A stretch of DNA of 63,456 bases, counting the filler, from Hausera hauseri (lineage: Eukaryota), in assembly GCA_046269625.1 (NCBI GenBank). It is 10 parts of 10 records of this genome, joined end to end, with 100 filler letters (N's around TTAATTAATTAA, not from the genome) between each part and the next. Parts side by side here need not be neighbours in the genome. Positions count along the whole stretch, not along the records: positions 37,550 to 44,132 come from JBJURY010084324.1; 9 more parts are not named here. The stretch is one strand, 5' to 3'. Both the position numbers and the translations under genes were made by a program. Positions 8,341 to 63,456 of the stretch are shown here, one piece after another. Numbering within the stretch: position 1 is the stretch's first letter; the number at the start of each line of letters is the position of its first letter. Under the pieces are notes generated by a model. That model was not told the DNA's origin. It searched no databases and saw only the letters and a list, made by a program, of their open reading frames with translations.

Positions 8341-9292
8341 ATGACAATTTGCTAAAATAATTTTTTAATTGCACACTGATTAAATGTTACACCATTATGT
8401 GAGAGGCTAATATTTGTTTTGCCAAAGGCTTTGCAGGTACATTTTAACACAACTGTTCCCCAGGTAACGTGGTAATTTCAGATTCAGAAACTGATTTGAT
8501 CAAACGGAGAGATGGGGGGGTGCTATAAACTCAAGAGAGAGCTTTTAATTGTTTCATTGGTATTAGGCTTGTGTAATGGTGCATTGACATGTGCATCACT
8601 TAAATCAGAAACTGCAGATGGAGTACACAATATATCCGCTGCCTTCAGATCGTTGTAATTAGATTTAAGTGCTTCAAGCAGAGTGCTACATGCTGGGAAT
8701 GAAATATGACGGGGAGAGTTTTGCATGAATAAAACACAATCTAGTAGATTTACCTTTTATTGTTTTAAGTATGTTTACTAAAGTGCAATGATCGTCTATG
8801 AGTTTATGTTCTTCTGTTCTAATAACAACAACTTGGAATTACTAAACCAATTAATATCTCACTTTTCTGTCAGACAAAGGAGTATGAGCCAAGTTATACA
8901 AAGATAATTGTTGATTAAAACTAAAGATCAATAGTTGAGTTTAACTGCCAGTTAATGTAACAACATGGATAATGTTTTTTTGGTTAAGAAAATAGTAAAT
9001 ATATATAACTGTTTCATCAAACAGTAATTATGCTTTTAAATATAGAGGGTGGCATTTGCTCAAATTACTAATTTATTTTTATCTTTGGTTTTTTGTATGC
9101 ATCAATTTCTTTGAAAAAACTTGTTTACATTTATTTTATTATCTCATTTTCAATAAATGCATCTTTTCAGTTCTATTTAATTTGACTGTACTNNNNNNNN
9201 NNNNNNNNNNNNNNNNNNNNNNNNNNNNNNNNNNNNTTAATTAATTAANNNNNNNNNNNNNNNNNNNNNNNNNNNNNNNNNNNNNNNNNNNN

Positions 9293-16612: not shown

Positions 16613-19600
16613 GAGTGGACACCGTGAAGGATTAAAATCATCAAGGGAATTATATGAAGGCTCGAGGGTAGAGAAGTTAGAGTTGGGATTTGAAACAATG
16701 CTGTTATCCTGGTCATTGTCAACAAAGAAAGCTGGCTTAAGATTAGAAATGCGTACGTTTTGATGTTTGTCCTTGCTTAAAATGGTAGCGGTGTGCGAAG
16801 AAAGGTTCAGTAATTTGTAAGGGCCAACGTATTGGGGCCAAAAACCAGAAAGTGACGGATCTTTCAGCCATACAAACTTGGCTGAGTATAAGTCCTCTAG
16901 AATATAGGATTTATTGTTGTTAGAGACGAAAGAATGAATCTGAGCTGACCTCGACGAAGTGAGATTGTGCTGCACGAATGTTTTCGTCTGTAAAGTTGTC
17001 TTTGAGATCAGAAAGTTCAATTAAGGCCCAAATTGGAGTCCCAAACAGTGCCTCAGCTGGAGCACAGCCCGTGGTGGTGGAGGAAGAATTGAACAAGAGG
17101 AAGAATTGAGTTCCGGTTATGTTTGTTGTTTGCCAGGATTTTAAGGAAATCTTCATGGTGCGATGAAATCTCTCGAGAAGACCATTTGCTTGGGGATGGT
17201 ACGGCGTCAGCTTCAAATTGCGGACCCTGGTCCGTTATGATATGACGTGGTGAGCCAAAACGGCTGACCCATATCTTGATAAATGCATCTGCTACTGAGT
17301 CGGTGTTTGTTGATGGAAGCGGAACGGCTTCAGGCCAGCGGGAAGCGCGATCCATTATGGATAAGATATATTGATAACCATTGTCGGAAGGTAGAGGACC
17401 CACAAGATCCAAATGCACGGTTTCAAAACAATAAGTGCAAGGGAAGTGGTAAAGTGGTGGTTTGAGGTGTTTGTGGATTTTATATTGCTGAAATGCTACA
17501 CATCCTTTACCCAGATCTGTACATCGGTACGCATAGTTGCCATACAACGTGGCGTTGCAAAAGATGAAATGGAGCTTTTGAATCCGGATGATGAAGAGAG
17601 TGAAAATGAGTGAAAGCTGTCTTCTGTAACGATGGAGCTGAATAGTTTTCTTGTTAGTCGAGTTGGAAGTGTCATAAGCAATGTCATCAATGATTTCAAC
17701 AGATTTAAAAGTTTTAAAATATCAGATGATGGCTGATTGCTTCTCAGGACCTCAGAGGATAAAATTGGCTGAACAGTAATTAAGTTAACCGACCGTGAAA
17801 GAAAGTCCTCTACTAAATTTTCGGTGCCTGAAATATATTTCATGGAAAAACTAAACGTCGACAGGTATGATATCTGTCTTTCTTGTCTGGGTGAGGGCTG
17901 TTTCACAGTCATTATGTGAAGTAAAGGCTTATGGTCGTTTTGGATGGTAAATTGGCGTGAAAGAAGCAAGTACTTGAAATGCTTTACCTTTAGAACTACA
18001 GCCAAGAGCTCACAATCGAATGTGGAGTATCGGCTTTCCGGTTGCGTAAGCTTTCAGGAATAGAATTCTAATGGTTCATCGATGCCACTATATATTTGGT
18101 GTAATATTGCACCAGTTGTTGTGGTTGAGGCATCGGTAGTTAATATTAGTTCAGCGTTTGGCTTTGGGAATGCCAAGAATTCCACAGTTTTCAGACCTTC
18201 ATGAAGGCGATCAAAATGATTTACTAGGTAGGAAGGCCAATGGATTAATTGTCTTTTCTTCCCAGATGAGAAGTGTGCGAAAAGTGCCGTTAGTTCGGAC
18301 CAGTGTGGGACGTATTTGTGTACGAAATGCAGTGTCCCTAGAAAACTCCTTATATCGGTAGTAGTAGTTGGCAACGTCACATTTTTTAATTATTGTAAGC
18401 GATCAGGCTGGGATGAATGCCCTTTGGGAGTATTTATGTGGCCTAAGAAGTTGACACGTTTCTGGAAGAAATTGTATTTGGCGAAATTAACTTGCAGGTT
18501 GTTTGATGCAATCTGTGGAAAATGATCCTAAGGTGCTCATAATGTTGTTTAATAGAGCTGGAAGCGATTAATATGTCATCTGTGTATGGATGAGCGAAAT
18601 TAAGACCAGAAATAACGGTGTAAATGTGGCGCTGAAAGGTCTGAGATGCACTACATAGGCCGAAAGGCATGACGATGTACTCGTAAAGGCCAAATGGTGT
18701 GATAACAGCAGTTTTTGAAATGTCCTCAGGTGCAACAGGAATTTGATAATAGACCTTGTGCAGATCAATGGTAGAATATGTATTGGTGTTGATTAAGCTA
18801 TAAAGTATATATTTAATGAGTGGTAGTGGATAGGCATCTGTAATAGTTAGATTGTTTAATTGTCGATAGTCGCCACATGGCCTATAGGTACCATCTTTCT
18901 TTACCACTACATGAAAAGGAGAAGCCCACGGTGAATTTGAAGTGCGAATGATGCTAGACCTTTCCAGTTCATTAAATTCCTGTTCTACAGCTTTACGTCT
19001 GCGTGGCGACAATGGTCTGACCTTTTGTTTGATAGGCCTCTGATACTCTGTTACTATGTCATGATAATTTGAGGATGAGAGCTTGAAGTTGATGTCTCTT
19101 TTAACTATGTGAAAGCATGACGTCGTGATGTACCATTTAAAATCGGAGTTTAGAGATAAGAATGAATAAGGCATATTATAAGAAAGAACAGCTTCAGTGA
19201 TTGGCGAAAAGCAGCTGGCATCGCTACTGTCGACGCCTAATTTGGATTTTTGCTTTAGAATAGATTTATGATTGTCGTTCACAATTGAAATATTACCGAC
19301 TTTATCGGAACTAATTTTTATAGATGACAAAGCGTTCAACATGTTCACAGATGAGTGCAATGAATTGCTCACTCAGTTGTCTACGAGACACATGTTTGGA
19401 GTTGCAACCGAGTTCCTGCTTAAAAGATAGCCGTATTTGCAATCGACCATTAGATCATGTGTGGCAAGGAAATCTGAGTCTATTATGGGAGATTTAATGT
19501 TGGCCACGTGGAACTTTCAGCCAAACTTATTTGGCAAGTTGGCGAATGTGAAAGTCAGTTCTGTGGTTCCTGCAGCAGGCAACGGTTGACCATGGCAGTG

Positions 19601-22744: not shown

Positions 22745-25275
22745 TTAATTTTACCCTACTATACTTGCACCATATATAAATCATGTTCTGACATCAACAC
22801 TTCGGTTCGTAGACCCTTTCGAATAACTATCAGTTTCTTTCCTTTTCGTTCGTAATATAAAATGTCTCCCTTGTTTTTGTCATTTAAGACGCAGTATTTA
22901 TGTCCATGTCTGTGTAAATGTTTCTTAAATTGTCGTCACTTTGGTATGATACCCCTTTTAGCAAATTTTATAATCTGCTAAATAAATTTATCCTTTCTTT
23001 TTTCTGTGGAGATTTTAATTGCATTATCCATCTTTAAGGCGCGTTGGCGATCTACTATTGCTTCAAGTTGGCTTTTCCTCATTACCGTGATTGCTCTTGT
23101 TTTGGTCTTTAATCTCGATAACGCATCGGCGTCTACATGTTTATTTCCTGGTTTATACTGGAATTCTATATTGTATCTCGATATTTATTTGATCCGTCTA
23201 TTAAGCCTACATGTCAAGTTATTCGTTTGGACTTTTAAAGTCGTAACGGCTTTGTGATCAGTGACAATTATAACTTTCTACATGTATACGTAAACGTTGA
23301 AGTGTCGAAGTGCTTCTTTTACGGCTAGAGTTTCTAACTCGGTAACAGAATCATTTTTCTCGGCATTCTTTAAGGAACGTCCTCCATTAAGCTAATTCCT
23401 CATATTCTCTTTTCTGTGCTAATTCATATCCAATGCCTTCTTTACTGGCGTCCGTTTTGATTATGAAGGGTAAGTTAAAGTCTGGGTACCGAAAACAGGT
23501 TCGATTGTTAATATTTTCTTCATTTCATCGAAGGCCTTTTGTTTGATATGCATCCATTTCCATTTAATTCCTTTTTTAAGTAGACAATACAAAAGCGCAT
23601 TTATTTTTGAGTTGCCCGGCACATAGGTGGCGTAATAACCACAGAGTCCTAGACAGTGCCTTAACTCCTGGCTAGGATTGTGGTTCCATACAATCTGATA
23701 TTTTGTTTAATAACGACTTATTTGATTTCGATTCGCCTTCTCCAACTATATGGCCGAGGTATGATACTGCGTTCTAAGCCCATTTGCATTTCTTTGGATT
23801 TAATTTTAAGCCGGCTTGTTTTAGCCTCATTAATGTGTGTTCAATATCCCTTAAATGTTCCTCTTTGGTCCTTGATGCAATCATTACGTCATCCAAGTAC
23901 GCGAAAGCATGGTCCAATCCTATCAACATTTTGTTCATCATTCTCGTAAAAATAGCTGGTCCGGCAGTGATGCCGAATGGCATAACGTTAAATTCGTAAA
24001 CACCATCATGGGTCTTAAACGCTGTCGTGTATCGATCCTCATCCTCGATTTCCACCTGCCAGTATCAGGATTATAGATCCGGAGTGGTAAACCATTTTGC
24101 TCCTAAGAGTCTGTCTAAACTTTAGACTCTAAAGCCTCTTTTACTGATGGTAAGGGGAAGGAATCCTTCATCATAAGGTTGTTTAATGCTTTGTAGTCAA
24201 TATAAAATCGATGTTTTGTAGTGTCTTTCTTTTTATCCATGAGGATCGGTGAATACCAAGATCTACAACCAGGTCTAATTATATCGACCTTAAGCATTTG
24301 TTAGACTTCCTTCTTTATTTTAGGCCTTAGTGAATGTGGCGGAGGATACCATTTTGGCATCTTCTTTTCTTCTAAGTCTATTTCTTCGTTTGAACCAGGC
24401 TTTTTCTTGAGTGGAATATTCAGTTTCAATGCTTTCGCTCTACCGATATCTTTTTCGTCCTTAGCAATAACCGATTTATAGCGGCATAATAATTCATAGA
24501 ATCGACAATAAGACTCAGATGAAAACTTAGTTTCGACATGAGGTGGAAATTCGGCATACTTATAAGGCTTTTCTTCAATAGTTATAGACGACACTCTGTA
24601 CGTATCTCCTAGAGTAGTATAAGCATAAAGCTTTACGGGTTCCGGTGCGCTATTTGCTATCCTGATTGGTATATGACCGGAGTGTACTTTTGTCAGTACG
24701 TTGCTGAGCGTTATCTTTGGATTTAAGGTCTCCTTTGGTTCAAAATATACCGGTTGATCGTCATCTTTTTGAACTTGAGCATAGATTATTATCTCTGTTT
24801 GTGGCGGAATGTCTTCATCGACTGGTATCCACACTTATCCGAACTTCCAATCTTTAGCGTTTCTTATACCTTTATTTGGTCTGATTTCTATCAATTTTCC
24901 TGTTTGCAAGTAGATCGCTATATTTGGTAACCTTTTCAGTAGATCACACCCTAAAACTACGTCGTCGGTTAGCTGTTCCATAACTGCGAATTCATGACGA
25001 AAAAACTGTCCAACTATTTGAACTTCCGGGTTCCATTTGAACATCGGTTTCAACATTTGGCCAAAAGCTCCTGTACTTCCTGGATCTTTTGTAGACGGTG
25101 TGTATAATTGTCTCCTGAGCGTTTTAGGTACTGAATCATTTTTAATGTTAGACATCGCCGACCCTGTATCAATTAATGCATAAACTTCCCAGTCTTCAAT
25201 AATGATTTTAGCGAAAGGTCTTCCTTCTATTACTGTTCCGAAACAGTTTGATGCTACTTTTTGGCATTTAGTCAC
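22745..25275 (-). pseudogene. Gypsy pol (protease, spacer, RT, RNase H, start of integrase), copy A of the glycoprotein-bearing family
   Basis: ALIDTGSAMS protease motif; RFYIDYKALN, DSFPLP, TAFKT.DGVYEFNVMPFG, YLDD; IKTDAS and TDHKAV RNase H motifs; colinear with 58632-61200. Confidence 0.92.
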
Positions 25276-25859
25276 CGGTATTTTATGTCTATTGATTCGT
25301 ATTTTTGGGGAGGATACTATATTCTCTGCCAGTTGGGGTATAATTCATTGTTTTCGATGTTTAATTCTTCCGCTTCATGAGTACTAATTAATGTCTCTCG
25401 GTTGTTAGTGTGCGGTTCTATGTTTCGGAAAAGTTCTTAACTTCGAGTTTCCCCAGACAGGTGGTTTAGTCTCTATATTACGAGGTTCCCTCGGGAAATA
25501 CAACATTCTGGGATCATCTCCGGACTGTCGGTAGCACATTTTCCGTAAAAGGCCGTAACGTTTCGTTCTTTCGTAAGGGTCTTCTATATTAACCATCCTT
25601 TTATAGATTTCAGTCTGGTATAAACTCGTGGACCGGTTATCACAGTCTTCGTAGACTGGAGCGGTAGGGGATAGCATAGGCAATGATGCTTTAATGACCG
25701 AATACGTCTTATATCTGTTTGTTCCTGAAGGTACTTCTCCTCCCTTAGGCTCGTCGTCGTCTGAATTATTTCTTCGCTTATTAGGTTTTGTAAATTTCCA
25801 CTTGTACAAGAAGATAGGCCTTTCTTTTCGTTTACGATTATAATAACCGACATGACGTT

Positions 25860-27640
25860 CTGCGTCCTATTTCCCTCTATCTTCTTCATATGCTTTCAAA
25901 AACTTTCCAAAGAGCGTTATGATTTCAGTCAATATTTTACATGAAAACCAAATCAATGTAAATATTTCATACCCATTTATTACTGCTTGGATGGCTGCCT
26001 TAATCATTTGTATCAGGAAATATATCGCTAAGAATCCGGATGCGGCTTGGCCAAAAATCAAAAATCTTTCCGAAATTTTGTAGAGTATTTCCGTAGTTAC
26101 TCGCTGATAATGGTTTACACAAGTAAGGATTCCAATTTGGCCTGATATCGTGTATTGTCTACTACTGAGGCCATGGCTCGGTTTAATTCATGTGTTCGTT
26201 GGTGCGGAAAAGCGAGGAATTGTCTAAAAGCTTCGATATCCTTAAGCCTGTATATGCCTTTCGACGAGGTATCTTGAAATTTGTCGTTTGTAATTCCTTT
26301 CGCAAGATTTGTTCCTGTTAATTTATTTGGAGTGGTAGTAATACCTCCATTTGGTAAGCTAGCCCAGTCTTTTTCACTACGTCTAAACATAGGTTCCCCT
26401 AAGCTTGCCTTACAATCTTTAAGAATAGTTGGTTGGGTCGCATTATCCAATAAGACTGTCGTCAACGTTGTAGCTAATCTGGGAGTATTCTGATAAATAG
26501 CAAGGAGTTCCTGAATGCAACGTTTTTCTTCTACGTTGATGGGTACATCTCTCTTTTCGCATTCATAGGTTAGCAGTACCTCGCCCGTGACCCGACCGAA
26601 AATTCCCTCTCTCATAGGAATTATTAGAGAAGCCAATTTTGGGTTGGCATATATAAGAGCCACTTTCATCCTCATGATCTCGGTATCTAATTTACAATCA
26701 TTTGTTATCATTTGTGATATAATTCAGTTATTCCAACTTGCCCTTTGTAATAGAAGTAATCGTCTCTGTTTTTCAGATAGTCCTCGATTCGGACATCCTG
26801 CGTTTCTAGTTTGCAAGTCTTCACATTTATTTCCGTTTCTGCGACAAAAAATGTCTCATAATTAGTAGCAAACATCACTACGTCACAACGAGAGATAATC
26901 TCTTTTTTAATAAATTTCAGTCTATGCTGATCCAAGATTAATATAGTGTGTTTAGGATGTTCCGATACGTACTCGCGTGTCCTCGAGTTAGTATCCGATT
27001 TATCCACGTATCGCTTTCCGGTAGTTTCATTAGACTTCAGTTCTTTAATTTTAATAAAATTACAACTTCTTCCAGAGGGAGGTTCCCATATTGTACCAGA
27101 ACCTCCGAAAGCACAGGTTTCGTCTTGTAGATGACACTTTTGATTCTTGGTGTATAACTTGGTGACGCTATGGAATATTACTTTCTGTGATTGCATTTCC
27201 GATTCGTAGAAATCCACGACTACTACATTCGCTTGTAGTCCTTTTCCAGTGTCGTATTCTGCTCCGTAACAATGTCCGCTACGCATATCTAACCTTCCGA
27301 CCACTACTTTGTATACCCTAATTATCTTCCCTGGTTGCATTTCTAACTGCATACTGTCCCATTGTACTCTTCCAGTCTCCTTGGCTTGTTTGCAGTGCTG
27401 TTGTTCTAAGTTCATCGGAATTAGAGCAGTTGTTGGTTTGATTATTGAGGAATGCCCGTGTACTAACCCACATTGAAAAATGCTGCGGGATCGTCTCAGC
27501 ATACATTCCACTCCATCTAAAGATATCAGTTCTTGTTGTTGGTACAGGAAGTAATTCTTTTCTTTTGTTTCTAGCTTGTGCGAACTGGCGTCTTCGCATG
27601 CTTCTAAATCAGTTAAGGAATATCTCTTTCCTAGTTTGAA
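25860..27640 (-). pseudogene. Chuvirus-like (class III, gB/G-fold) envelope glycoprotein, copy A, upstream of the protease
   Basis: YSLTDL.AC, IFQCGLVHGHSS, CKQAKETG, CYGAEY, GEVLLTYEC, CIQEL..Y, KGIY and a C-terminal hydrophobic TM segment; 2 frameshifts; colinear with 56320-58110. Confidence 0.75.
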
Positions 27641-32485: not shown

Positions 32486-34534
32486 CTAAACTTCCAATGT
32501 CTGGACATCACCAAGAGTATGCAAAAGTGGCATTATAACAAACCTATTTTTATAAGGCAGAAGCATACACTTATGAGACACCTGTGAGACTTTTGCCACC
32601 CTTAAGGGCCCTGTAGGCTCAGACACAATAAACACTCTGAGAAAGTCAGAGGACACTGGATACTTGTAGAAGTTTTCCATCTGTGTAAACATCTTATATA
32701 CTACATAAATTCCTTCTAAAGCCTGAACAATATTATGTATGACACAGAAATGTCCATCTATAATAAAAGCATTATCACCAGTAGAAACTTTCATGAACCA
32801 CTTTCCTGTCTTCAATCCTCTGTACTGTGCTACCGCTTGAAGGCCATCAGGAACAGGTCCAACATAATGTTGCATTCTTAACTCATTACAGGGCAACTCA
32901 AAGCTACAGATCTTTTCAACTTCTGACAATCATCTTATTATCTGTGCAAGAGGAAAATCTGGCTTTCTGACAAACCTTTTCAGTTTACATAGATAGTTTT
33001 CATATGGAAAAGCTGAGATACAGTCCAAAGAACCAAACCGTTGAGCATCTGCAGATAGGTGGACCAAGGCATGCACATTATAAACCAGAGCATCTTTGCC
33101 ATAAAGCTCTCCAAAATGACCAACAAATGTTTTGAGTAGTGTGTTTGCATAAGTACTATACAGGGAACACAGCTGAGGACTGACAAGAATGCAAACACCT
33201 ACAGAAAATAACATAAAGTTGTTATATAAATGACTGTCTAAATATGGTGCCAGCACAACAGAACCAGTATACATCAAAAATTGCCACAGTTCAGTTGCTT
33301 TCCAACGGTCAAGCTCTCTTAGACACCTTGGCTTCCTTGCAAACTCAAGTGGTATATATTTGCGCATTTGAATCAAACTGTGAGAAATCTGATCAACAAT
33401 GCTAGAGGACAAACGAAATTTCAAAGGACCTCTAAGCCAGATATTCAACAACTTAAGTGCAACACCTAAACATGCAAGGTGCATGTAATCTAGAGGAAAT
33501 TTAGTTACCATGCCAACATCTAAACCAGACAATCCATGAGGTCCCTCGTGATGGTGGTACTCATCAGTCCTCTCTGAAAATGATGAATCAGTTCGTAACA
33601 CAAAATCATTTATGGGATATGTCATTCTGTTGTTCGTATAAACACCTGGCTGGCAACACTTGTCACATCCATGATATGCATTATGAGCCTTCACATTTTT
33701 CACAAAGGCTCTAGCAGGAGTATCACAGACAACTGAATCCACCTCAATAAAAAGTTGTTTTCCTTTAAAAAAAACTCCTTCCTGCAGCTGTTTCAACTCC
33801 TGGTTAAAATCTCTTAGAAATTCATCAGCAGAACTTGGCTTTTTGGAACCACAAAACAAGCCAATAACAGCAGGTTCTTTCATTGGAACACTTACCAAGA
33901 GTCCTAAGATGGGCCATAACTGTATATTTGTGCTTTTAAACAACTGCAAGCCATCAATATTTATTTGTAACCTAAAGCGACATACATCTGCTGTGTTTTC
34001 TATTAACTTGACTAAAGTCTTTTGAAGAGCTTTCAATATTCCTGTATAATAATACAAACCACCACATCTATGTTGAATTTCATATTCTGTGTTTGTTTTA
34101 AGAACTGTTCTGGCATCTTTTGGAAGTTGTGGATGGTACACTCTTAGTAAACTAAGGAGAGCTGTGAGGGCAACTAAAGACACACCAAACTGTAAAGCCC
34201 AATTGGCTAGGCTTTCAACAAGGCTCTCTGGCTCATCAGCAGACTGGGACTCTGATTCAGAGTCGGACTCTGAAACATAATGGATTTCTGCTTCTCCATT
34301 AGTATCATCTGGGCCAAGTTCATCTACATGGTCATTTATGAGAAAGTGTGTGGCTTCATTGCTGCTTTCAGGGCTACTTGTCATAGGTGTCCCAGTGTCA
34401 TGGACTGAAGGTAGTTCTGAGTCTATCAGACAGTCCTCTGCAATGTCAGAAAGTCGTTTTTCCAGAGCAAAGCGAGCCCTCCGTCTAATGCCAGAGTTTG
34501 TCAACGGATGTTCCCTCCTTTTCATTTTCTCCAA
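32486..34534 (-). pseudogene. EnSpm/CACTA (CMC) transposase with one in-frame stop at 32930-32932
   Basis: LPKDARTVL, INIDGL.LFKS..LWPILG, CDTPARAFVK..H...GCDKC, FPLDYMHL.CLGV, LDRWKATEL, YNVH.L.HL..FGSLD..SAFPYENYL; the two ORFs are in the same frame. Confidence 0.9.
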
Positions 34535-35469
34535 AAAAAAAGATGATGGAACACAACAAACTCCTTACTTAGTACTTTGATAAATTATTGATTTCTAGTG
34601 TAATAACAGCATGTCACTAGACTTTCTCTGTGAAAGGAAAAAGAATACTTACCCTTCTTTCTTGTTCTGACAGAATCTGAAAATAAATAAATAAAATGTT
34701 AATGCTAGTGCACAAGATCTTAAAAAGTTTGCTCACTTCGAGCATGCAACTTCTTGACACAAAATGTATTAAAATGCATGTTACAACAACAAATACAACA
34801 ACAATAACTTATCGTCATAATATCGATTATTATTATTACAGTTATCATAATTATAATAATGATATTATAAAAAACCTGCAGAATATTCACTGTTAAAGAG
34901 TGGAAACAAGGAAAATTTACATCATGTCAGTGATTAAAAAATTAAAGAGCAAAAATATAGCATTTTGGCACTGTTTATGGGGGTGGGACAAATTCACTAA
35001 TACAATTAATATCCCTTAGTTGCATGTTTATTTAGATAAGCACGGCTGAGTCGTGCTGTAATAGTAGTTGATGTAGTAGATATCAGTTGAATTTGGGGGA
35101 CCATTAAGAAAACCACCACTCTTTCCATCTTTGCATATTTGCATTTGAAAATGTTACTGATGTTTATTAGAGAGCATATCCATTTGAAATTAAAACAAAA
35201 CAAAATTCAAATGTCTAAACCTTATCCCCTCAACTAGGTTAATCATAAAACACTGACACAAGCCATTAAACTACTCTAAACAGTTTGGGGACCTGAGTTG
35301 AATCAAGACAGCTACCAGTAATTAAAGGTGCAACCCTCTTATAGACAGGTGTCAAACTAAACTGCACAGGGAAACAAAATTAAAACATTGGATCAGGGCA
35401 AAGGCTGTCTTAATGAACTTTTTACATGACATTTTAGATAAATATTGCTAGCTAAATTATCAATTAAGC

Positions 35470-37449: not shown

Positions 37450-37638
37450 NNNNNNNNNNNNNNNNNNNNNNNNNNNNNNNNNNNNNNNNNNNNTTAATTA
37501 ATTAANNNNNNNNNNNNNNNNNNNNNNNNNNNNNNNNNNNNNNNNNNNNCTGAACATGATTCACGATGTGAACTGAGGGTTAAAGATTGTTCGACTCGAA
37601 GGATTACAATACTTGACAGGGAAACCAATCGAGGAAAT

Positions 37639-40100
37639 TTAGAGCTCATTTATAACTTTTGAATCAGGGTCCATTGAATCCGATAATTTCTTTACGAACT
37701 TCTGTTCCTGAAAACTGAAATTTGGATCGTTTCCCATTTCTATCAATTTGGTATGGAAATTCTGGTCTGACCCGGCCATCCATTCTTTAGATTTGTGTAA
37801 AAACCTTATTTCATCCGTTAACGTGTCTCGGTATCCTGGACAAATGTCCAAGATTTCAATGTCTTGAACAGAAATTTCCTCGATTAATTTCCCTGTCAAG
37901 TATTGTAATCCTTCGAGTCGAACAATCTTTAACCCTGAGTTCACATCGTGAATCATGTTCAGTTTTTCCATAAAGTTCGTCTCTTCGATCAGTTTGTAGA
38001 TTTCCTCCATTATCAATGCTTCTCATTCCTTTTCCACAAATTTTAGTCGTCGTAGCGCTTCAAATTGAGTACGGATGTCTATTTCTATGTGCATTGTGGC
38101 TAAATCATGTGTACTTTCCTCTAGTTGTGTCTTTACCATTGGCTCGCTTTGCGGAAATTCTGTTTTGCGATCTTCTACCAATTTACTTAGTCGTGTTACT
38201 AATTCGGACCATTTCGACAGTTGATTTGCGATTACAGGTTTTGCCACTATGGCTTTATCTAGCATCTTATAGGCATCTTCTACTTATCGTCTGGTCCTTT
38301 TAGGAAACTCATAATTCGACCGACATAACTAAACTCGTCCCTATGCTCGTCCAATTCTACGATACAAGCCTCAATTGTATATTGAGTATCCTCGTTGTTT
38401 GGGAACATAGTTCGATTTCTCAAACTATAAATCTGTGCTCGTGTTTCATTTTCTATTTTATACGACTCTCTAAGTTCGTATATCGTCTAGGTACGGCGAA
38501 CGTGAGTTTAATCATCTCCATTAAGGGAGGAATATCTACTGGGTCTATACCCAATATTTCTAAATCGGTATTACTTCGATGGTTAACAGCTTTTCCTTAA
38601 GTCGTTTAAGCATTGCGTATAGAATTTCGTCCATCATACGTTTTAAATTACGGACTACTCTCTTCAGTTTTTGGTTTTCTTCCAAAGTCGATAATAGCGT
38701 TTGAGCCTTAGTAACTTTTACATCGACACTTTCTTCATTCTTATTTCATCCTTCCGAAAATTCTACTCAGCTTTTAATCCATGATTCCAATTATTGCTTC
38801 CATTTTAACAACGTTTTGGTTGAGACTTCTTCGGGTTGTTCTAAGTCGATTGCTTCCGAAAACTTCACTTCGCTACGCAGTTTCAAAATTTTATATAACT
38901 TCTTAGCGAATTGTTTTTATTTTCCGGATATGTCTACTTGTTCGCTAATCTGCTTGAGATTTTCCCAATTTTGTTGTAATATTTTGGGCTCTAGACATCT
39001 AATTCGCATTTTCTTTAGCTCATCGGCGTTTATCCATGAACGTCGGACTTTCCATTTCTTTGGATAGAAATCGTTACTGTTTGTTGTTTCTTCCTCACTA
39101 GAAGGAAGTGGGCAAATCTCGTTAATTTCATTAATTAACTCTATGGGTTCTGCTACTTCGGCGGGGGTGTGCGGACCAATTTCCGGTATACTCGAACTAT
39201 GCTCCGTGTCGCCTCCTACAACGACGTTTGGGTTTTCCGTTTCTTCATTCTTCTCTCTGGTTATTTTGGAGCGTAAACGGCTTCTACGTTTCTTTTTTAA
39301 TGAAGGACTATTGCCTCTATTTTTCGTAATTTTAAGTATCAGTGGCTCTATAAACTCTTTTTCCGCTGCGTCGTCTTCAGTAAGCTTAGCTTCTTTTTCA
39401 ACTGTAAACTCAGGCTCTGCGTCTAAGTCGACTGTATCGATGTGCCTTGTTTATCAGATGGCTTGTTGCTCGTCGGAACACTCTTCTTCCGTGTCATGTC
39501 CATTCGTTTTGGTGCTATCGTGTGCACGCATTCAGTTTCCGGTCCTACTAAGCCGTGATATACTTCTATTAATCTTAATTTATCGCCGTATTCTCTTCTA
39601 GCCATAAGAATTTGTACGTTAATGGTATCCGGCTGAGCATCTAAGAATTTTCTCAAATCGTGTATAACGATGATAGTGTCTGTATCTCTACGAACACCAT
39701 ACTTTGCTTATAGGTTCTAGTTGATTCTAATCATACTAGTCTTATTCGGTTCGGTAAATGAAACGCTATACGGATTTGTACATGACCTTAAAATATGTCC
39801 TTCTTTGCCACAAGTAAAACAAACCAAATTCCCGTTTCTGCCGACTCTCTGTCGACCGTCTTCGTTCACCCGTGACTTAGATCTATTTATACCCTTATTA
39901 TACTGGTTTGACAAACTGCACATTATCAGTGTTTCTTCTATCGTTATTTCGGTTATCGCCGTTTTGATTCGAGTAGTTAGAACCTTTATAATTTCCTCTA
40001 TTCCTATCCCAGTCTGATCTGTTCGTATTAGTATAATTACTACCTCTGCCATTTCTGTACCCGCCATTATTATATCTGTCCACTTTCCTCACCTCCACCT
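37639..40100 (-). pseudogene. Gag C-terminus with CCHC zinc knuckle followed by a long unknown region; 5' part of the glycoprotein-bearing Gypsy family
   Basis: N/R/G-rich segment then CFTCGKEGHILRSC (CX2CX4HX4C); the peptide at 37639-38016 aligns without gaps to the translation of 54235-54610. Confidence 0.7.
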
Positions 40101-54231: not shown

Positions 54232-56320
54232 ACGATACTAAATGATATATATAAAATGATTGAAGAAACAAAATTTATGCGAAAGCGGAATGCGACTTGC
54301 GATTTCCATCCGCGGTTGAGAGATGTCCGCCTGGAAGGAATACGATGGTTGATATCTAAACCTATTGAATAAATATCGATCAGAGATCTTAAAACCTTAG
54401 ATTTTTGTCCCGAAAATCGGTCAATCGTTGAAGAAACGGTGAAATTCTTACACCAGCCACAAGGATAGATGGACGGAACGAATCAAAGGCATCATGCCGA
54501 ACTAATTAAAATAAAGAACGACCGCCAGCTTAATTTTGAAGAGACCAAATTTGTAAAGAAATTCTTAGACGCAATCGATCCGGATTTAAAGAGTATTAAC
54601 GAGATGTACGAATTAGCATTATTAATGGCGAAATTGTCAGAAATTAATGACGAAAAATTAAGACAATTGTTGCAACAAATACAACATGTCGAAGAAACTT
54701 GCATTATGACAAAACAGAGAGCGATGAGATTAAACGAACTAGCTAAAGAACTCGAAGCCTATAAAAGCAAATACGCCCTTACAGAAGCCGAAAAAGCTGA
54801 CAAGTTACAATTCATTCAAAGATGGCAAAGAGATGTCACATCTGAGCTAACGAAATATCAAGAAAAAGGGCTAATTTCACGCAAAGAATTATGTTCGTTG
54901 TTAACATTGCTCCACCAAACGTCCGCTAATGGACGATGTTTTCGAACGACGAAAATGATCTAAATACAACAAAAACTACAAGAACTCAGAAAAATTACGT
55001 GGACCGCAGGTGCAGACCGGTCAACTGGTACACCATTGAGGAGCTATCTACTGCCGGATAATGAAAATAAACTAGATTGGGAAGCCTATTTAGACACAAT
55101 AATTGCCGAGAATCCGAAAACCCCAATACGATTAGAGCAAATGGAGATATATTCTCCGGACCAAAGGTTCAACGTCGAAATGCTTCTGGACCCGGTACAG
55201 ACCGAGAAAGATTTAAATCAATTAATTGAAGTGAACCTCACCGAAAATCAACTAAGACACCTAGTTCCCACTTTAACTAAACTAGCTAGCAAAGGTACGA
55301 CTTCTAGTACGGTACCTAAGCTTTTACTGAAGGAATATGCTAAAATCTTAAAGCAAAGGCAGAGGAAATGATCCCAGTAAAGATAGTATCGGACTGGATA
55401 GACGAAAAGGAACAAGAGTTCACTACGCACTCCCTTGTAAAGGATGTATTACTGTGGATAAAGAATAACGGATACGCCCATGAGCTGAGCTATAGACTTT
55501 ATTTCCGAGGGAGGGTACTACACGAGTAGGAATTATTAATAAAAGTCGGAATTATCCCAGGTGAAATAAACCGGTTAGTGGTAATCACCACTATCGACGA
55601 AACAAAAGAAGAGGCCTTAAGGAAGGCTAAGGCCGAACAGCAGGTAGGACGAATAATAGGAGTCCGAAATGCAGCAGTATATTTCGAGTACCTACAAACG
55701 AATGAAGATAATGAGCAATGTGATAAAAATTTAGTACCGATCGATGGCAGTATACCTGTTGTAACAAAACAGAAGCGCCCTGTCGGTAGGCCACGGAAGA
55801 TATGAGAAGAAATCGACTATATTAGAGACTTAATTAGGGAATTGAAGCAGATGTCCATACCGACCGTTAGCGCGGATAATAAGGAACTAAACGAAATTAT
55901 GAAAAATTTGATACGAATAGTAAACCACTCTAACCTCGGTGGTGATATATTAGACGAGAAGGGGAAGGCCATAGCAGATGCCGCAAAGGCCATGAAGATC
56001 CTTCGGTGTAAATCGACCAAAAAGTACTTTAAGCGATGAAATGATAATCGAGAAAATTATGGTAGAAAATACCTTAAAGGAACTGAGAAAAGTGTTGCTA
56101 TATCTGGCCATCAAAACCAATCCGAATAGAGAAAATGAATTTAACAAGGCTATTAGTTTAACAAGAAAGGCTGACAGGAAAATACCTCGAGAAGTGAATT
56201 GGTCTACGTTATTCGAAAAAGAGGAAGAACATCAGAGTGGATTCTTCTTCCATAACAATAGATTCGGAGATCTGCTACGAAATATAACTGGAAATCGCAG
56301 AGGAAATGAGTCAAAGTGGT
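54232..56320 (+). pseudogene. Unknown polyprotein region upstream of the glycoprotein (helical/coiled-coil domain, ubiquitin-like domain, basic linker)
   Basis: Long reading frame broken by isolated stops and 2 frameshifts; homologous to 37639-38016 (minus strand). Confidence 0.6.
55368..55586 (+). pseudogene. Ubiquitin-like domain (one in-frame stop)
   Basis: LVKDVLLWIKNNGYAHELSYRLYFRGRVLHE*ELLIKVGIIPGEINRLVV aligns without gaps to ubiquitin residues 22-71. Confidence 0.55.
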
Positions 56321-58110
56321 TAATTAACTTTTTGACTCTGATGATGTTAATAAGACAAATGGGCCAAAAATATTCGTTAACGGACTTGGACATGTGCAAA
56401 GATGTGAGGCCCCACAGATTAGAAACAAAAGAGAAAAGTTATATATTATATCAACAACGCGAAATAGTTACCTTGGGTGGAGTACAATGTATGTTGTGGC
56501 GATCTAGCAGCATTTTTCATTGTGGACTGGTACATGGACACTCGTCAATAATTAAGCCAACAACCCCATTAATTACGATGAATTTAGAACGTCAGCATTG
56601 CAAGCAAGTTACAGAAACGGGGCGAATAAAATGGGACGGTATGGAACTGGAAATGCAGCAAGGGAAAATAATAAGAGTGTATAAAGTAGCTGCAGGAAAG
56701 CTGGACATGCAAACCGAACATTGTTATGGTGCGGAATACGATACCGGAAAGGGATTAGAGTCAAACGTCGTGGTAGTGGATTTTTACGAAACCGAAATGC
56801 GTATTCAGAAAGTGATGTTTCATAGCGTTACTAAACTTTACACCGAGAACCACAAGTGCCACATTCGGGATGGCACATGCATGTTTCGAAGTTCTGTAGT
56901 AATTTGTGAACCTCCAGCAAAGACCGATTGCAACTTTATCAGAATTAAAGATCTTAAGTTCAACGAGACGACAGGAAAACGATACATAAATAGCACGAAA
57001 ACTAACTCTAAAACACGAAAAGATGTAGCCGAACAGTCCACACCTACTATACTAATTTCTGATACTTATGGATTAAAATTTGTAAAGAAAGCTATGCTCA
57101 CAAGATGGGACGTCGTAATTTATGCTACCAACTACGAAGCATTTTTCGTAGCCGTGACAGAAATAAACGCCAGAACGTTCAAACTCGAGACTCAGGATAT
57201 CCGGATTGAAGACTATTTGAAGAACAGAGACGACTATTTCTACTATAAACGACAAGCCGGAATAGCCGTGTTATACCACAAAATGATAACAAAAGACTGC
57301 AAATTGGATTTGGAAATCATGAGAACTAAACTAGCTCTAATATACGCAAATTCGGAGTTGGAATCACCAATAATTCCGATGAAGGAAGGTGTTTATGGAC
57401 GAGTAACAGGAGAGGTCCTATTGACGTATGAGTGTAAGAAGAAAGACGTACCGATTAATGTGGAAGAGAAGAGGTGCATACAAGAACTTCCAGTAATATA
57501 TCAGGACGTACCGAGATTAGTAACACCAATTACAAGAGTAATATTGGCTAATGCTACTCAACCGAGGATTTTAAGAGACTGTAAAACCAGGTTAGGAGAG
57601 CCGATGTTCAGACGTAGCGAGACCGACTGGGTAAGTTTACCGAACGGTTGTATTATCGCAGCACCTACCAAACTGACAGGAACAAACCTCATAAAAGGAA
57701 TAACCGATGGTAAATTTCAAGATACAGCCGCAAAAGGTATTTACCGACCAAAAGAAGTAGAGGCGTTTAGACAATTTCTCGCTTTTCCCCTCCAACGTAC
57801 ATATGAATTAAACAGAGCGATGCATACAATATTAGAGGACTCGCGCTATTAGGCAAAATGGGAATCATTACTTGGCGTTGGTTATTACAAGAAGGTAACT
57901 ACAGAAATATTATACAAAATGTGTGGAAGATTCCTGATATTCGGACAAGCCGCGTCACGATTTCTAGCGATATATTTCTTAATTCAACTGGTAAAAGCTA
58001 TAATTCAAGCAATTATAAATGAATACGGGATATTCACCTTGGCTGGATTTTCGTGCAAAATTTTAGCTACTATTATTACTCCTTTTGGAAAATTCTTAAA
58101 AGCTTATGAA
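56320..58110 (+). pseudogene. Chuvirus-like class III fusion glycoprotein, copy B (within ORF 56041-57852 plus in-frame 57853-58270)
   Basis: Internal hydrophobic signal WLINFLTLMMLI, Cys-rich ectodomain (IFHCGLVHGHSS, GEVLLTYEC, CIQELPVIY..LVTPITRVI, KGIY), N-x-T sequons, C-terminal TM; single stop at 57850 where copy A has Gln. Confidence 0.78.
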
Positions 58111-58631: not shown

Positions 58632-61600
58632 GTGAATAAAACGAATAACGAACTATACCCAATTGGAGAGTTAAGACAATTAGTCGATCATCCAGTTAGA
58701 ACCACTGAAGTTACCATCAACGGCTACAAAGTGTCTACGATACGACAACCCAAGATAGCACCAAGCTATTACGGTACAGTAATCGAAGGCAGATCCTTTC
58801 CAAAGATTCAGTTGGACGATTGGGAGGCTTATGCACTAATAGATATAAGTTCTGAAATATCACTGATAAAATTTGATTTGATACCACAATTCTTACGGAA
58901 ACAATTATATCCACCTACTACGACAGACCTAGGAAGCATTGGAGCTTTCGGACAATCCTCGAAGAGTAAATTCCGATAGAAACCAGAAATTCACATAATG
59001 GGACAATCTTTTCGTCATGAATTCTCAGTAATGGAGCAATTAGCAGATGATGTAGTGTTAGGATGTGACTTACTAAGACAATTACCCAATATAGCAATGG
59101 ATTTCAATGCAGGCAAGTTGATAGAAATTGGCCCAATAAAAGGAGTCAAAACTACCAAAGATAGAAAATTTGGAGAGATGTGGATTCCCGTAGACGAAAC
59201 CATATCACCCAGGACAGAAATTCTAATATATGCTCAGATACGTCAGGATGACGATCAGCCAATATATTTCGAACCAAAGGAATCGCTTGATCCAAACCTC
59301 GTGTTCAGCAATGTTTTGACAAAAGTACCAACAGGCCGTGTGCCAATCAGAATAGCAAATAACGCACCAACTCCGATTAAACTGTACGCCATTACCACTT
59401 TGGGACACACGTGTATAGTATCATCAATCACTATTGAGGAAAAACCGTATAAGGATGCCAAATTTCCGCCCCACGTGGAGACTAAGTTTTCAGCAGAATC
59501 ATATTGTCTATTTTACGAATTACTCTGTCGTTATAGTTCGATTATCGCGAGAGATGAAGAAGACATTGGCCGAGCCAAAACCTTTAGGCTTACAATTTCG
59601 CTTAAGAAAAAGCCCGGATCTAACGACGAAATAGACTTAGAGGATCAAAAGATGCCGAAATGGTACCCTCCTCTACATTCATTAAGGCCAGAAATGACCA
59701 AAGAGGTTGAACGGATGTTAAAAGCCGACATAATTAGACCAAGCTATAAATCTTGTTATTCACCGATACTGATGGTTAAGAAGAAAGGTACAGTAAACAC
59801 CGATTTTGTATCGACTATTGAGCGTTAAATACACTTATGATGAAGGACTCTTTTCCGTTACCATCGATAAAAGAAGCTTTAAACAGGCTTTCAAGAGCCA
59901 AATGGTTTACCACTCTAGATTTAATATCTGGATATTGGCAAGTAGAGATAGAGGAGGAAGATCGTTACAAAACGGCATTTAAGACACACGACGGTGTATA
60001 CGAATTTAATGTTATGCTATTTGGAATAACTACCGGACCAGCCATTTTTACGCCCATGATGAATAAGATGCTATCGGGACTGGAACACGCGTTCGCCTAT
60101 TTAGATGACGTTATGATTCCCTCGAAAACGGAAGACAAACATTTAAAGGATATTGAAGGTACACTCATGAGGCTGGAACAATCTGGATTAAAATTAAATC
60201 CAAAGAAATGCATAGAGACTCAGAATGTTGTATCTTACCTTGGACATATAGTCGGAGAAGGAGGATCGAAGCCGGATAAGTCATTATTAAGTAAGATATC
60301 GGATTGTATGGAACCTCAGAATTAGAAGAAATTAAGACACTGGTTAGGGTTGTGTGCGTATTATGCTACTTACGTGCCAGACAATGCGAAGATAAACGCA
60401 CCTCTGTATCATTTACTTAAAAAAGGGATCAAATGGAAATGGACCGATATAGAACAAAAAGCTTTTGACGAAATGAAAAAAATTCTGACTAGTGAACATG
60501 TTTTAAGATATTCTGACTTCGACCTACCATTCATAATCAAAACAGACGCCAGTAAGGAAGGTATCGGATATAAATTAGCTCAGAAACGATAGTATGAGGA
60601 CGTTCTCTAAAGAAAGCTGAGAAGAATTATTCCGTAACAGAGTTGGAAACATTGGCAGTAAAAGAAGAACTGCGACATTTTAACGTATACGTCTATGGAC
60701 AATATTATAATCCTTACTGATCATAAAGCAGTTACGACTTTGAAAGGTAGAGCAAAAATCCAACGTGTAGACTAAACAGATGGATAGATGAAATTTCACG
60801 TTATAATATTGAATTCCAATGCAAGCCCGGAAATAAACACATCGACGCCGTTGCCTTATCGAAATTTGAAACTAAAACAAGCGCAGTTACTGTAATGAGG
60901 AAAACACACCTCGAAGAATTAGTAGATAGACAGCGGACTCTCGTGTTGGATAAAGCATTAAAGATTGCTGTCAAACAGAGTAAAGACAAAGTTATGCAGC
61001 AAATTATCAAGTACGTTGATACCAACGTAACACCAAAGGGTCATCAGTTACGGAAACACCTACGACGATATGGTCACAGGTACTGCGTCACTGGAGATTT
61101 GAACCACGAAAATGTGTTATACTACGAACGAAAAAGACGAAAATTTTTAGTCATACCAAAAGGATTGCGTTCAGAAGTATTAATGGCTGAACACGATTCG
61201 TATTTAGCCGGACACATGTCGTGGAAAAAGACCTAGAAAGAATCTTGAATAAATATTATTGGCCAAGCATTTACATTGATGTGAGAAATTGGGTAAATGT
61301 TTGCGATGTATGCGCAACCAAACAAAGGAAAGTGAAAAACTACGTCGCCTAACTTAAACCTATCGACGTTCCCGATAGACCAATGCAAGCAATGTCTATG
61401 GATATTGTAGAGCCATTACATACAACTCATATGATCAACAAATACATTTTGACCTGTGTAGATCGATTGACTCATTTCGTCGAGCGTATAGCGTTATTAG
61501 ACCAAAAGGCCAAGACCTTGGCAGAAGCCGTAGTCCGGAAAATCATTTGCACATACGGCCACCCGAAAAAATCTTGACAGATCGCGGAAGAAACTTTACA

Positions 61601-62163
61601 AGCGAATTGTTCGATAACATTACCAAAATTTTTGAGATTGAACGATTAACTATCACAGATTATCATCCAAAATGTAATGGAATGGTCGAACGAATGAACG
61701 CGACAGTTATACAAATCTTATCGACAGTAGTCGCAAAAGACCAGAAAGATTGGGATGAGTTCTTAGAAGATGCACAGTTTGCTATTAGTACTACTCCACA
61801 TCGTGCGACAGGATTCACTCCATTTTTATGATGTACGGAAGAGAAGCTGCGCTTCCTACAGATCTAGGACTCATTCCATATACAACACAAACGGAGGATT
61901 TAGAGCAAAATTTTGTCGAAGTATTACAATCAAGATTGCACAAGTGTTGGGAGATAGCCAAGGAATTATCTAAAGAATACCAGGAACAATTCAAGAAGCA
62001 ATACGATAAGACAGCTAAACCTCACGATTTAGAACCCAGAAACTGGGTTTATGTACACTATCCAGTAGCAAAGAAAGGCACATCTCTGATGCTTACTAGG
62101 ACAGACAGAGGATCTTATAAGGTTACTAAGGTTACACCAACCAGTTTACATAAAGAAAAGTAA
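58632..62163 (+). pseudogene. Gypsy pol (PR, spacer, RT, RNase H, integrase), copy B
   Basis: ALIDISSEIS (decayed DTG), LDLISGYWQ, YLDD, IKTDAS, HDS..AGH..CDVC, MDIVEP, TDRGRNF, YHPKCNGMVERMN; RT-RH-IN order is Gypsy-type. Confidence 0.93.
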
Positions 62164-62230
62164 CATGGAATAGTTCATATCAATTCAGTGAGTAGTTAAG
62201 ACGGAAATAAGACCAGATAAACGCTATAAT

Positions 62231-63456
62231 TTGCGTTCGAATAAGGTTAATAAGGAAAGGAAAACATCGTCAATCGTAACCAGACAGATATTATATGTAC
62301 AAATAATTCTCGCCCTATCGCTAATCGCTTCTTATATACCCAAGGTGAAATCAATAACTAGAACTGAAAAACTACGATACTCAATGAAAAACAGGGATAT
62401 CCAGAACATGCAACCACTTAGAGTACACGATATGGATTGGAGCAAACCATGTGCATGGTTTGAAGCAAGCAAAGCCGTACAGAGCTATGTAAAATTTCAA
62501 ATAATATTTGTAACTAGATATACGATGGGAACATGTGATTTTCCGTACGGACATCACAAAAGATGTGGTGATTCGGATTTTGGACAAGCCTACGGATACA
62601 GATTTCAAATGTTTTATTCTAATCAGTTTGGAGCTCAAGCTTATATAATTGCAGAACTCGTAATTAGAATGCCCCAACGAAAGGACGTAAGCCAAGCCAA
62701 GACGGACGAAATAATCCGAAGCTCTGACCCGTTTAAAAGACTCTTAGATTATAACATTATGGGGATTTACAGGGAATTAAAGAATCAATGTATACGGATT
62801 GAAATCAAAATAGAGCTGCATGGAGACAGACAAACATCTGTCCGATTTATAGCATTAAATGCTTCGATCCCTACTCTGGTGTATTGTTATCTGGCCAAAC
62901 GCCGATCTACTACCTGTTGTGTAATAAAACTAGGACAAGAGTATCAGTTGCAACTTGATTTGTTTAATACGTACCCCGGAGAGCAAAGCACTTATTTAAG
63001 AGGATATCGTCCGAAAAACGTAATATGAAAACTTCCATCCCCAACCACTACGAGAAAACTGTCCACTGCTCCGAGTACAACTCGCACTACTACGATCGTC
63101 ACTTCAGACGAAATGTCAGGTAGCATACCTATTAAAATTTTGGCAAAAAGCTATAAAATTCTATTTTTCGCTGAAGAGACGTTAAATCAAGACGTCAAAA
63201 TTGAATGTCGCACCCTGCACACTAACCAAGTTATGATCCTGAGGAAGAGTATCCAGGAAACTGAATGTAGATCATTACGATTGCAACACGATTATATAGT
63301 CAGAATCACAGCAAAGGGTAAGAACCCAAAACTTATACAGTGCGGAATCTAGACGACAAGATCGAAGTAATGCAGTATGGAGATCTTAGTACGCAAAATG
63401 CTTTTACCACAAAAGGTTCTATTGAACCAAGCAGTTTACCGACGATAGCCATATTG
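62231..63456 (+). CDS. Putative second surface/env-position protein downstream of integrase (signal peptide, Cys-containing, Thr-rich stalk, FN3-like); internal stops, truncated at window end
   Basis: Hydrophobic ILYVQIILALSLIASYI segment; ORFs 62231-63028 and 63113-63352 share a frame and are joined by PSPTTTRKLSTAPSTTRTTT. Confidence 0.5.

Follow-up and report, generated by a model that had tools for sequence, protein, structure and literature searches.

How the pieces of retroelement coding sequence found on separate contigs of Hausera hauseri belong together is the question raised by this locus. The window, by which the whole analysed stretch of 63,456 nucleotides is meant, is made up of ten unrelated contigs and the spacers between them. 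Three of the contigs are of concern here, namely contig 7 (37550-44132), contig 10 (54232-63456) and contig 5 (22261-27641). The preliminary description treated the end of contig 7 and the start of contig 10 as an overlap and reconstructed from them a giant element with the order gag, uncharacterised region, ubiquitin-like domain (UBL), glycoprotein (G), protease (PR), reverse transcriptase (RT), RNase H (RH) and integrase (IN). Comparison of contigs 7, 10 and 5 points to at least three families in the window. It is likely that the three contigs are remnants of defunct elements belonging to related but distinct Ty3/Gypsy families, with a helical domain common to contigs 7 and 10 and with G and pol common to contigs 5 and 10, and that the intact form was one long open reading frame (ORF) encoding gag, accessory domains, G, PR, RT, RNase H, IN and a predicted second membrane protein. 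The features are listed in Table 1.

Table 1. Retroelement features of contigs 5, 7 and 10; positions count along the whole window.
Feature	Position	Strand	Evidence or remark
Contig 5: sister family, G to start of integrase	22770..27640	-	~70% nucleotide identity to contig 10
Contig 7: fold-back arm, inverted copy of 37872-37962	37550..37640	+	reverse complement, 88/91 bases
Contig 7: copy of shared 124-aa domain	37642..38013	-	46% identity to contig 10, E 2e-37; without Pfam or Atlas label
Contig 7: decayed coding sequence, acidic/basic low-complexity, then helical-looking part	38014..39773	-	several stops and frame switches
Contig 7: gag nucleocapsid CCHC zinc knuckle	39774..39824	-	PF00098 (zf-CCHC) E 1.5e-5
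Contig 7: Asn/Arg/Gly-rich segment preceding zinc knuckle	39900..40098	-	sequence; base composition
Contig 10: copy of shared 124-aa domain	54235..54606	+	two stops; predicted all-helical
Contig 10: long predicted helices	54607..55182	+	one database homologue, P0032 (150 aa), over 54622-54933
Contig 10: small helical domain preceding UBL	55183..55366	+	profile of 4 relatives, E 0.006
Contig 10: probable ubiquitin-like domain, other frame, one stop	55362..55598	+	relatives' profile E 0.47; UBX E 0.2
Contig 10: AT-hook-like motif	55773..55802	+	PF02178 E 0.28, below cut-off
Contig 10: Monjiviricetes/chuvirus-type fusion glycoprotein G	56371..58104	+	PF24664 E 5.9e-49; one stop
Contig 10: protease (catalytic motif altered) and PR-RT linker	58770..59795	+	tblastn with P0008, P0009
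Contig 10: RT, RNase H, start of integrase zinc-binding domain, several frames	59801..61233	+	PF00078 E 4.9e-29; tblastn
Contig 10: integrase core and C-terminal part	61221..62184	+	PF00665 E 0.0013; tblastn
Contig 10: post-integrase reading frame, cut by contig end	62192..63454	+	predicted second surface protein

The series G-PR-RT-RH-IN previously read on contig 10 was confirmed, G, RT and IN by Pfam, and PR and RNase H by searching with intact relatives in tblastn. The order PR-RT-RNase H-IN is that of a Ty3/Gypsy pol, and upstream of it, before PR, both contig 10 and contig 5 encode a chuvirus/gB-like glycoprotein (PF24664). The genes for G, PR, RT, RNase H and IN of contig 10 are all broken by stops or frame switches. 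A transmembrane segment (TM) of G is predicted from hydropathy at 57949-58005; the start of G seems to be shorter than in the relatives, and the segment before it lies below the hydropathy threshold. A PDB sequence search with G gave no match at E≤1, the word-based homologue search for G returned none of 5,736 candidates, and no close relatives of G were found by DNA scans of viral contigs and metagenomes. The protease region alone matched nothing in Pfam or PDB. A dUTPase-like reading of the linker was tried and rejected, as no match was obtained.

When contigs 5 and 10 are compared with the intact proteins P0008 and P0009, their frame switches differ in place, none being common to both over the region from G to RNase H, and in contig 5 the end of G and PR share one frame. 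Taken together, these two observations fit one ancestral ORF. At 22261-22770 of contig 5 (minus strand) the homology to contig 10 ends at the start of the integrase; about 150 nt beyond this point there is a G run, followed by TG and unrelated DNA, which is possibly a polypurine tract and LTR remaining after an internal deletion. The window contains neither an LTR pair nor a primer site nor a target duplication, and the ends of these contigs have no repeat in common. A search for tRNA genes was negative. Further Gypsy pol fragments lie on contigs 2 (7168-8364) and 4 (17200-19372); their DNA is 65% alike, and the RT of contig 4 is far from that of contig 10 (36%).

The relatives of G were sought by a phmmer search of 1.84 billion protein representatives with positions 54250-57849 of contig 10, stops being replaced by X. 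The search gave 291 matches at E≤0.001, and the best 150 of the 291 were examined. Among these 150, the top matches are long polyproteins containing G, 25-31% identical over G, and a single one (P0032) matches outside G. Nineteen matches, chosen because they were top or long, were scanned with Pfam. The protease follows G in the same ORF in 11 of the 19, with RT and RNase H also present in five; a gag marker precedes G in four, and one has a Bcl-2 match. In P0012, P0020, P0021 and P0023, gag lies upstream of pol in the same element. In P0009 and P0023, CCHC knuckle, G, PR, RT, RH and IN are encoded in one natural ORF. A TM after G is predicted in all 13 relatives reaching that point, and a hydrophobic segment before G exceeds the threshold in 7 of 13.

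Some of these proteins have peculiarities of their own. P0157 (4,844 aa) has, besides G and pol, ankyrin and no fewer than seven stretches resembling a protease, and repeated protease-like stretches also occur in P0014 (three) and P0008 (two). In P0099, immunoglobulin domains are fused in front of the Monjiviricetes-type glycoprotein. The sources of ten relatives are ENA assemblies in nine cases and a bacterial MAG in one; P0009, a eukaryotic-type retroelement polyprotein, stands in the database as a hypothetical protein from a Flavobacteriaceae MAG, probably owing to bin contamination.

The region of contig 10 between the shared domain and G can be labelled in part with the help of the relatives. 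P0009, P0014, P0021 and P0022 contain a helical stretch and a UBL before G, the small helical domain preceding the UBL in them as on contig 10. A profile of the helical domain plus UBL, built from these four proteins and searched in 60 frames of the window, has both its best match (55183-55360, E 0.006) and its second-best match (55503-55584, E 0.47) on contig 10, and the two are collinear. An alignment of five UBL candidates, that of contig 10 included, gave six PDB matches with E from 0.14 to 0.98, five of which we take to be UBL domains. In single-sequence searches one relative matches ubiquitin (E 0.0038) and contig 10 matches UBX (E 0.2). The AlphaFold model of the contig 10 UBL has the order strand-strand-helix-strand with pLDDT 43, and Foldseek found no match to it at E≤0.001. 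A UBL before G on contig 10 is probable as judged from these comparisons: the profile, PDB and UBX matches agree with the UBL proposed earlier, but all E-values of contig 10 for the UBL itself exceed 0.1 and the pLDDT is low.

Structure prediction of the pieces before G, recommended in the preliminary description, gave no confident fold: besides the UBL, a 379-aa helical region was modelled with pLDDT 50, its best hits being generic helical bundles (Z 7.4). For the small helical domain, a TFIIS-LW-like fold appeared at VIA rank 41 (Z 5.7, rmsd 3.5, 69 residues aligned), which may be regarded as a weak lead; its identity as TFIIS-N was rejected for want of Pfam or PDB sequence support. A GRP motif similar to an AT-hook precedes G in P0008, P0014 and P0021 and, by eye, in P0011 and P0157. 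A Bcl-2 profile of four relatives, one with a Pfam Bcl-2 match at E 0.00096, found nothing in contig 10, and a profile of four sequences against a frameshifted target is too weak to exclude the domain. MATH, BIR and ankyrin had no Pfam match in the pieces scanned. The helix and UBL module of L002, one of the metagenome loci discussed below, did not match contig 10.

Contig 7 supplies the knuckle. As had been noted before, it lies about 1.8 kb upstream of the shared domain; the distance is 1,811 nt, on the same strand, and the path between the two crosses several frame switches and stops. Two pieces of the intervening 38014..39773 were scanned and have no Pfam family at E≤1. The minus strand from 37641 to about 40130 is A-rich and CpG-rich and has the composition of contig 10 (A.388 and T.228 at 37641-40100 versus.386 and.228), and the DNA upstream of about 40130 has T.309, GC 26-27% and 1-3 CpG per 250 nt. 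Upstream of the knuckle on contig 7 no capsid domain and no 5' LTR were found, and a capsid profile of four relatives had no match in 60 window frames (best E 5.6), so the word gag is used for contig 7 on the strength of the knuckle. What contig 7 retains is thus a single element-like block of about 2.5 kb, truncated on either side. The stop of the ORF at 37641-37639 is explained by the junction of an apparent 91-bp fold-back, which forms the end of contig 7.

Decayed coding-like stretches also lie upstream of the element on contig 7 (43000-44132 and 40600-41000, minus strand), the former resembling, by eye, a DNA-transposon or Polinton protein. Elsewhere in the window, an ORF on contig 8 (45419-46333, plus strand) matches Adeno_IVa2 (E 7.8e-5) and Pox_A32 (E 2.1e-4) and is packaging-ATPase-like; we assume it to be of Polinton type. 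On contig 6 a 544-aa ORF (32930-34564, minus strand) has a weak match to DUF4218 (E 0.0013), a domain presumably associated with CACTA-type transposases. Another ORF of contig 6 (37031-37447, minus strand) is similar to axonemal dynein light chain 1 (best PDB E 1.6e-26) and is probably a host exon of a ciliated eukaryote; its word-based homologue search gave 0 of 21 candidates.

The ungapped match between the peptides of contigs 7 and 10 reported in the preliminary description is genuine. It comprises 57 identical residues of 124, with 69% similarity, and its score of 298 compares with 38 ± 6 for shuffled sequences, the maximum being 65 (n=2,000). This segment is the sole similarity between contigs 7 and 10 among all six-frame pairs. 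No further homologue of the domain was found by the word-based search (0 of 490 candidates), among the best 150 of the 291 phmmer matches, in the relatives compared directly or in 80 metagenome loci, and the Atlas gave no usable match. An unlabelled helical domain of 124 aa has been retained in two families, with a divergence that looks purifying.

What the shared domain means for the linkage of gag to G can be read in another way, which we regard as unlikely. It could be a mobile accessory module; the contig 7 family need not then continue into UBL, G and pol, or the knuckle could come from a nested Gypsy piece, and both the join of gag to G and the 4-kb spacer would be stitching artefacts. 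Accessory modules do move among the relatives, the UBL with its helical stretch standing before G in P0009, P0014, P0021 and P0022 but, in L002, behind pol in an ORF of its own, and contig 7 is cut by the apparent inversion directly after the shared segment. In addition, the knuckle is 240-632 aa from G in six relatives versus about 1,311 aa in the composite, so that the spacers of the relatives are half as long or less; P0022, with 1,374 aa before G, is the only relative as long, and no knuckle was found in it. According to PMC6431247, the accessory ORFs of Burro may alternatively be subdomains of the polyprotein. On the other hand, the knuckle and the shared domain of contig 7 stand on the same strand within a single block of uniform composition. 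A CCHC knuckle occurs before G in 6 of the 13 relatives with pre-G sequence, and in every knuckle-bearing relative it lies upstream of G. Finally, contig 10 calls for a gag ahead of it, and the order on contig 7 is the expected one. For these families we infer the linkage of gag to G and the single ORF.

It would also be conceivable that G reached an ordinary Gypsy element as a stray RNA-virus insertion and at no time belonged to it, since G matches a Monjiviricetes family and many stand-alone glycoproteins of about 650 aa. This is highly improbable, as two families that are 70% alike both have G before pol and as the phylogenetic analysis places G and RT with the same polyproteins. In the G tree (FastTree, 113 rows, of which 111 are those of the best 150 matches with a G match of 380-750 aa and two are from the window), contigs 10 and 5 fall into a group of 19 rows with the polyproteins and not with the glycoproteins of about 650 aa; the stem is long (1.3), and the support of 92 is below the 95 mark of the tool. 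The RT tree has 90 rows, 80 of them metagenome loci. In it, contigs 10 and 5 group with P0008, P0009, P0018, P0157, P0158 and the loci L001 and L002 (SH-aLRT 95), and P0017 and P0023 lie outside this group. None of the 80 metagenome loci matches G or the unlabelled regions, and L001 and L002 start too near RT to show G or the regions before it.

As for the overlap itself, the DNA does not bear it out. The codon-aligned nucleotide identity over the segment is 60% (65, 74 and 41% at the three codon positions), different codons encode 35 of the 57 identical residues, and blastn of contig 7 against contig 10 gave no match. The low identity together with the different codons indicates an old divergence of a coding domain and not an overlap, and the reconstructed element is a composite of two families. 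An overlap of the two contigs within a single element or family, for which the position of the aligned segment at the end of contig 7 and the start of contig 10 might speak, has next to no probability, their 60% being below even the ~70% by which contigs 5 and 10 resemble each other.

Behind the integrase, contig 10 has a reading frame with a hydrophobic signal-like segment (62273-62329), a Cys-containing region and a Thr-rich stretch; no TM is predicted before the contig end, and the frame has no sequence match with the tails of the relatives. All four protein relatives that run past IN end in a tail with two hydrophobic segments, 200-450 residues apart. The same arrangement is seen in L001 and L002, which among 48 closed Gypsy post-IN tails are the only two with two or more such segments (an IN match was present in 55 of the 80 loci, and decayed controls may have shortened tails). 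A second membrane protein behind the integrase is thus predicted for the group of relatives, and it is likely that contig 10 encodes one too. For this frame the Atlas gave only sub-threshold lipocalin leads (0.83), and an FN3-like reading of the tails, made by eye, was abandoned, the profile match on contig 10 having E 3.4. Four of six complete post-IN tails (P0009, P0157, L001 and L002) end in valine, which we take to be PDZ-ligand-like. In the literature searched, with most subscription papers and Repbase outside its scope, nothing relevant was found on the cargo module or on a TM protein downstream of the integrase.

The two loci encode more behind the pol polyprotein, in same-strand ORFs at 7268-11517 of L002 and 5011-6528 of L001. 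They include an exonuclease of the RNase_T family in L002 (E 1.5e-11), similar-looking ORFs without a Pfam match, and a helical stretch with UBL. The polyprotein of L002 also has ankyrins and a second protease. No LTR was found, and the ORFs may or may not belong to the element.

The order gag, uncharacterised region, UBL, G and pol proposed for the reconstructed element is supported by the intact relatives P0009 and P0023 and by Burro, although here it is drawn from two families and its UBL is weakly supported. The arithmetic behind the 4 kb between gag and G is sound (3,947 nt), but the figure belongs to the composite and is confirmed by no single sequence, since none carries the knuckle, the shared domain and G together; part of this spacer is tentatively labelled as helical domain, UBL and AT-hook-like motif. 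Likewise, the internal region does exceed 11 kb, 11,032 nt from the knuckle to the end of the contig being a composite minimum with both ends missing. Such a size is not giant, because the published internal regions of GAG-ENV-POL elements measure 8.6-12.9 kb (PMC13524379, by our own subtraction for the 14 of 30 supplement rows considered that give LTR coordinates) and those of Burro reach 25 kb (PMC6431247).

The likeness to the giant single-ORF Gypsy elements of flatworms, also put forward at the outset, holds: P0009 and P0023 are single ORFs, and Burro/GYPSM1 of planarians has the same order. According to PMC6431247, Burro combines gag with CCHC knuckles, accessory domains including a ubiquitin/SUMO-like one (Ubi2) and BCL-2, an in-frame env with mononegavirus matches, presented there as the first case of an env in frame between these genes, gag and pol, and PR, RT, RH and IN. 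The comparison is by description and not by sequence, and there are differences. The same text gives Burro an ORF1 of 4,873-5,140 aa within an internal region as long as 25 kb, with two or three knuckles and, besides BCL-2, the domains MATH, BIR and ankyrin, whereas the contigs described here amount to a composite minimum of about 11 kb with one knuckle and an unlabelled helical domain, all copies being decayed.

Chary and Hayashi (PMC13524379) describe GAG-ENV-POL errantiviruses with an ENV of the HSV/gB type in Platyhelminthes, Nematoda and Bryozoa, which, like contigs 10 and 5, have a Gypsy pol with a chuvirus/gB-like glycoprotein before it; their planarian C1a ENV rows resemble the G of contig 10, by eye only. 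Their text contains none of the terms ubiquitin, Bcl, single ORF and Burro and, in the parts consulted, describes no membrane protein behind the integrase, and their elements are intact, unlike contigs 7, 10 and 5. Judged by the position of G before pol in their sequences, contigs 10 and 5 can be assigned to the GAG-ENV-POL kind. Anakin (PMC7642597; mentioned also in PMC12440569) has the same class of captured chuvirus glycoprotein but is a BEL/Pao element, whereas here G precedes a pol that groups in the RT tree with G-first Gypsy-type polyproteins; PMC10309623 provides background only. The layout is thus already published, for Burro and for the GAG-ENV-POL errantiviruses, and the contigs are a decayed addition to a known group. 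By analogy, their intact form may be considered to function like such elements as far as the layout is concerned; the decayed copies themselves are unable to function.

The topology and every function of the intact form we infer by comparison with the intact relatives and with what is generally known of LTR retroelements. A polyprotein would be translated from one RNA under the control of the LTR, and its capsid, nucleocapsid and accessory domains would remain cytosolic. The hydrophobic segment before G would direct G into the ER and the TM would anchor it, the enzymes behind G being cytosolic and released by the protease. Behind the integrase, another signal and TM would put a second ectodomain on the membrane, and the polyprotein would in this way pass through the ER membrane at two points. 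Fusion of the particle with a new cell would be the task of G, and attachment to that cell perhaps that of the second protein; the helical domain, the UBL and the AT-hook-like motif would act on host chromatin or ubiquitin pathways.

A bolder reading goes further, and we hold it to be rather doubtful. According to it, the contigs would represent a separate, long-branched lineage of Gypsy elements with G before pol, whose cargo of about 1,300 residues (an uncatalogued helical domain, a TFIIS-N-like bundle, a UBL and an AT-hook) would be a captured kit for docking to both the transcription-elongation and the ubiquitin machinery of the host, and which would enter cells by two proteins, a fusogen encoded before pol and an attachment protein encoded behind the integrase. 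Decayed and truncated copies are poor material for questions of cargo or entry. What the contigs add to the published group is one divergent lineage, whose G is 25-31% identical to the best long relatives. The finding would matter more if the cargo is a TFIIS-N/UBL/AT-hook module, and if the protein behind the integrase is the attachment partner of G, the entry route of invertebrate retrovirus-like elements would become testable.
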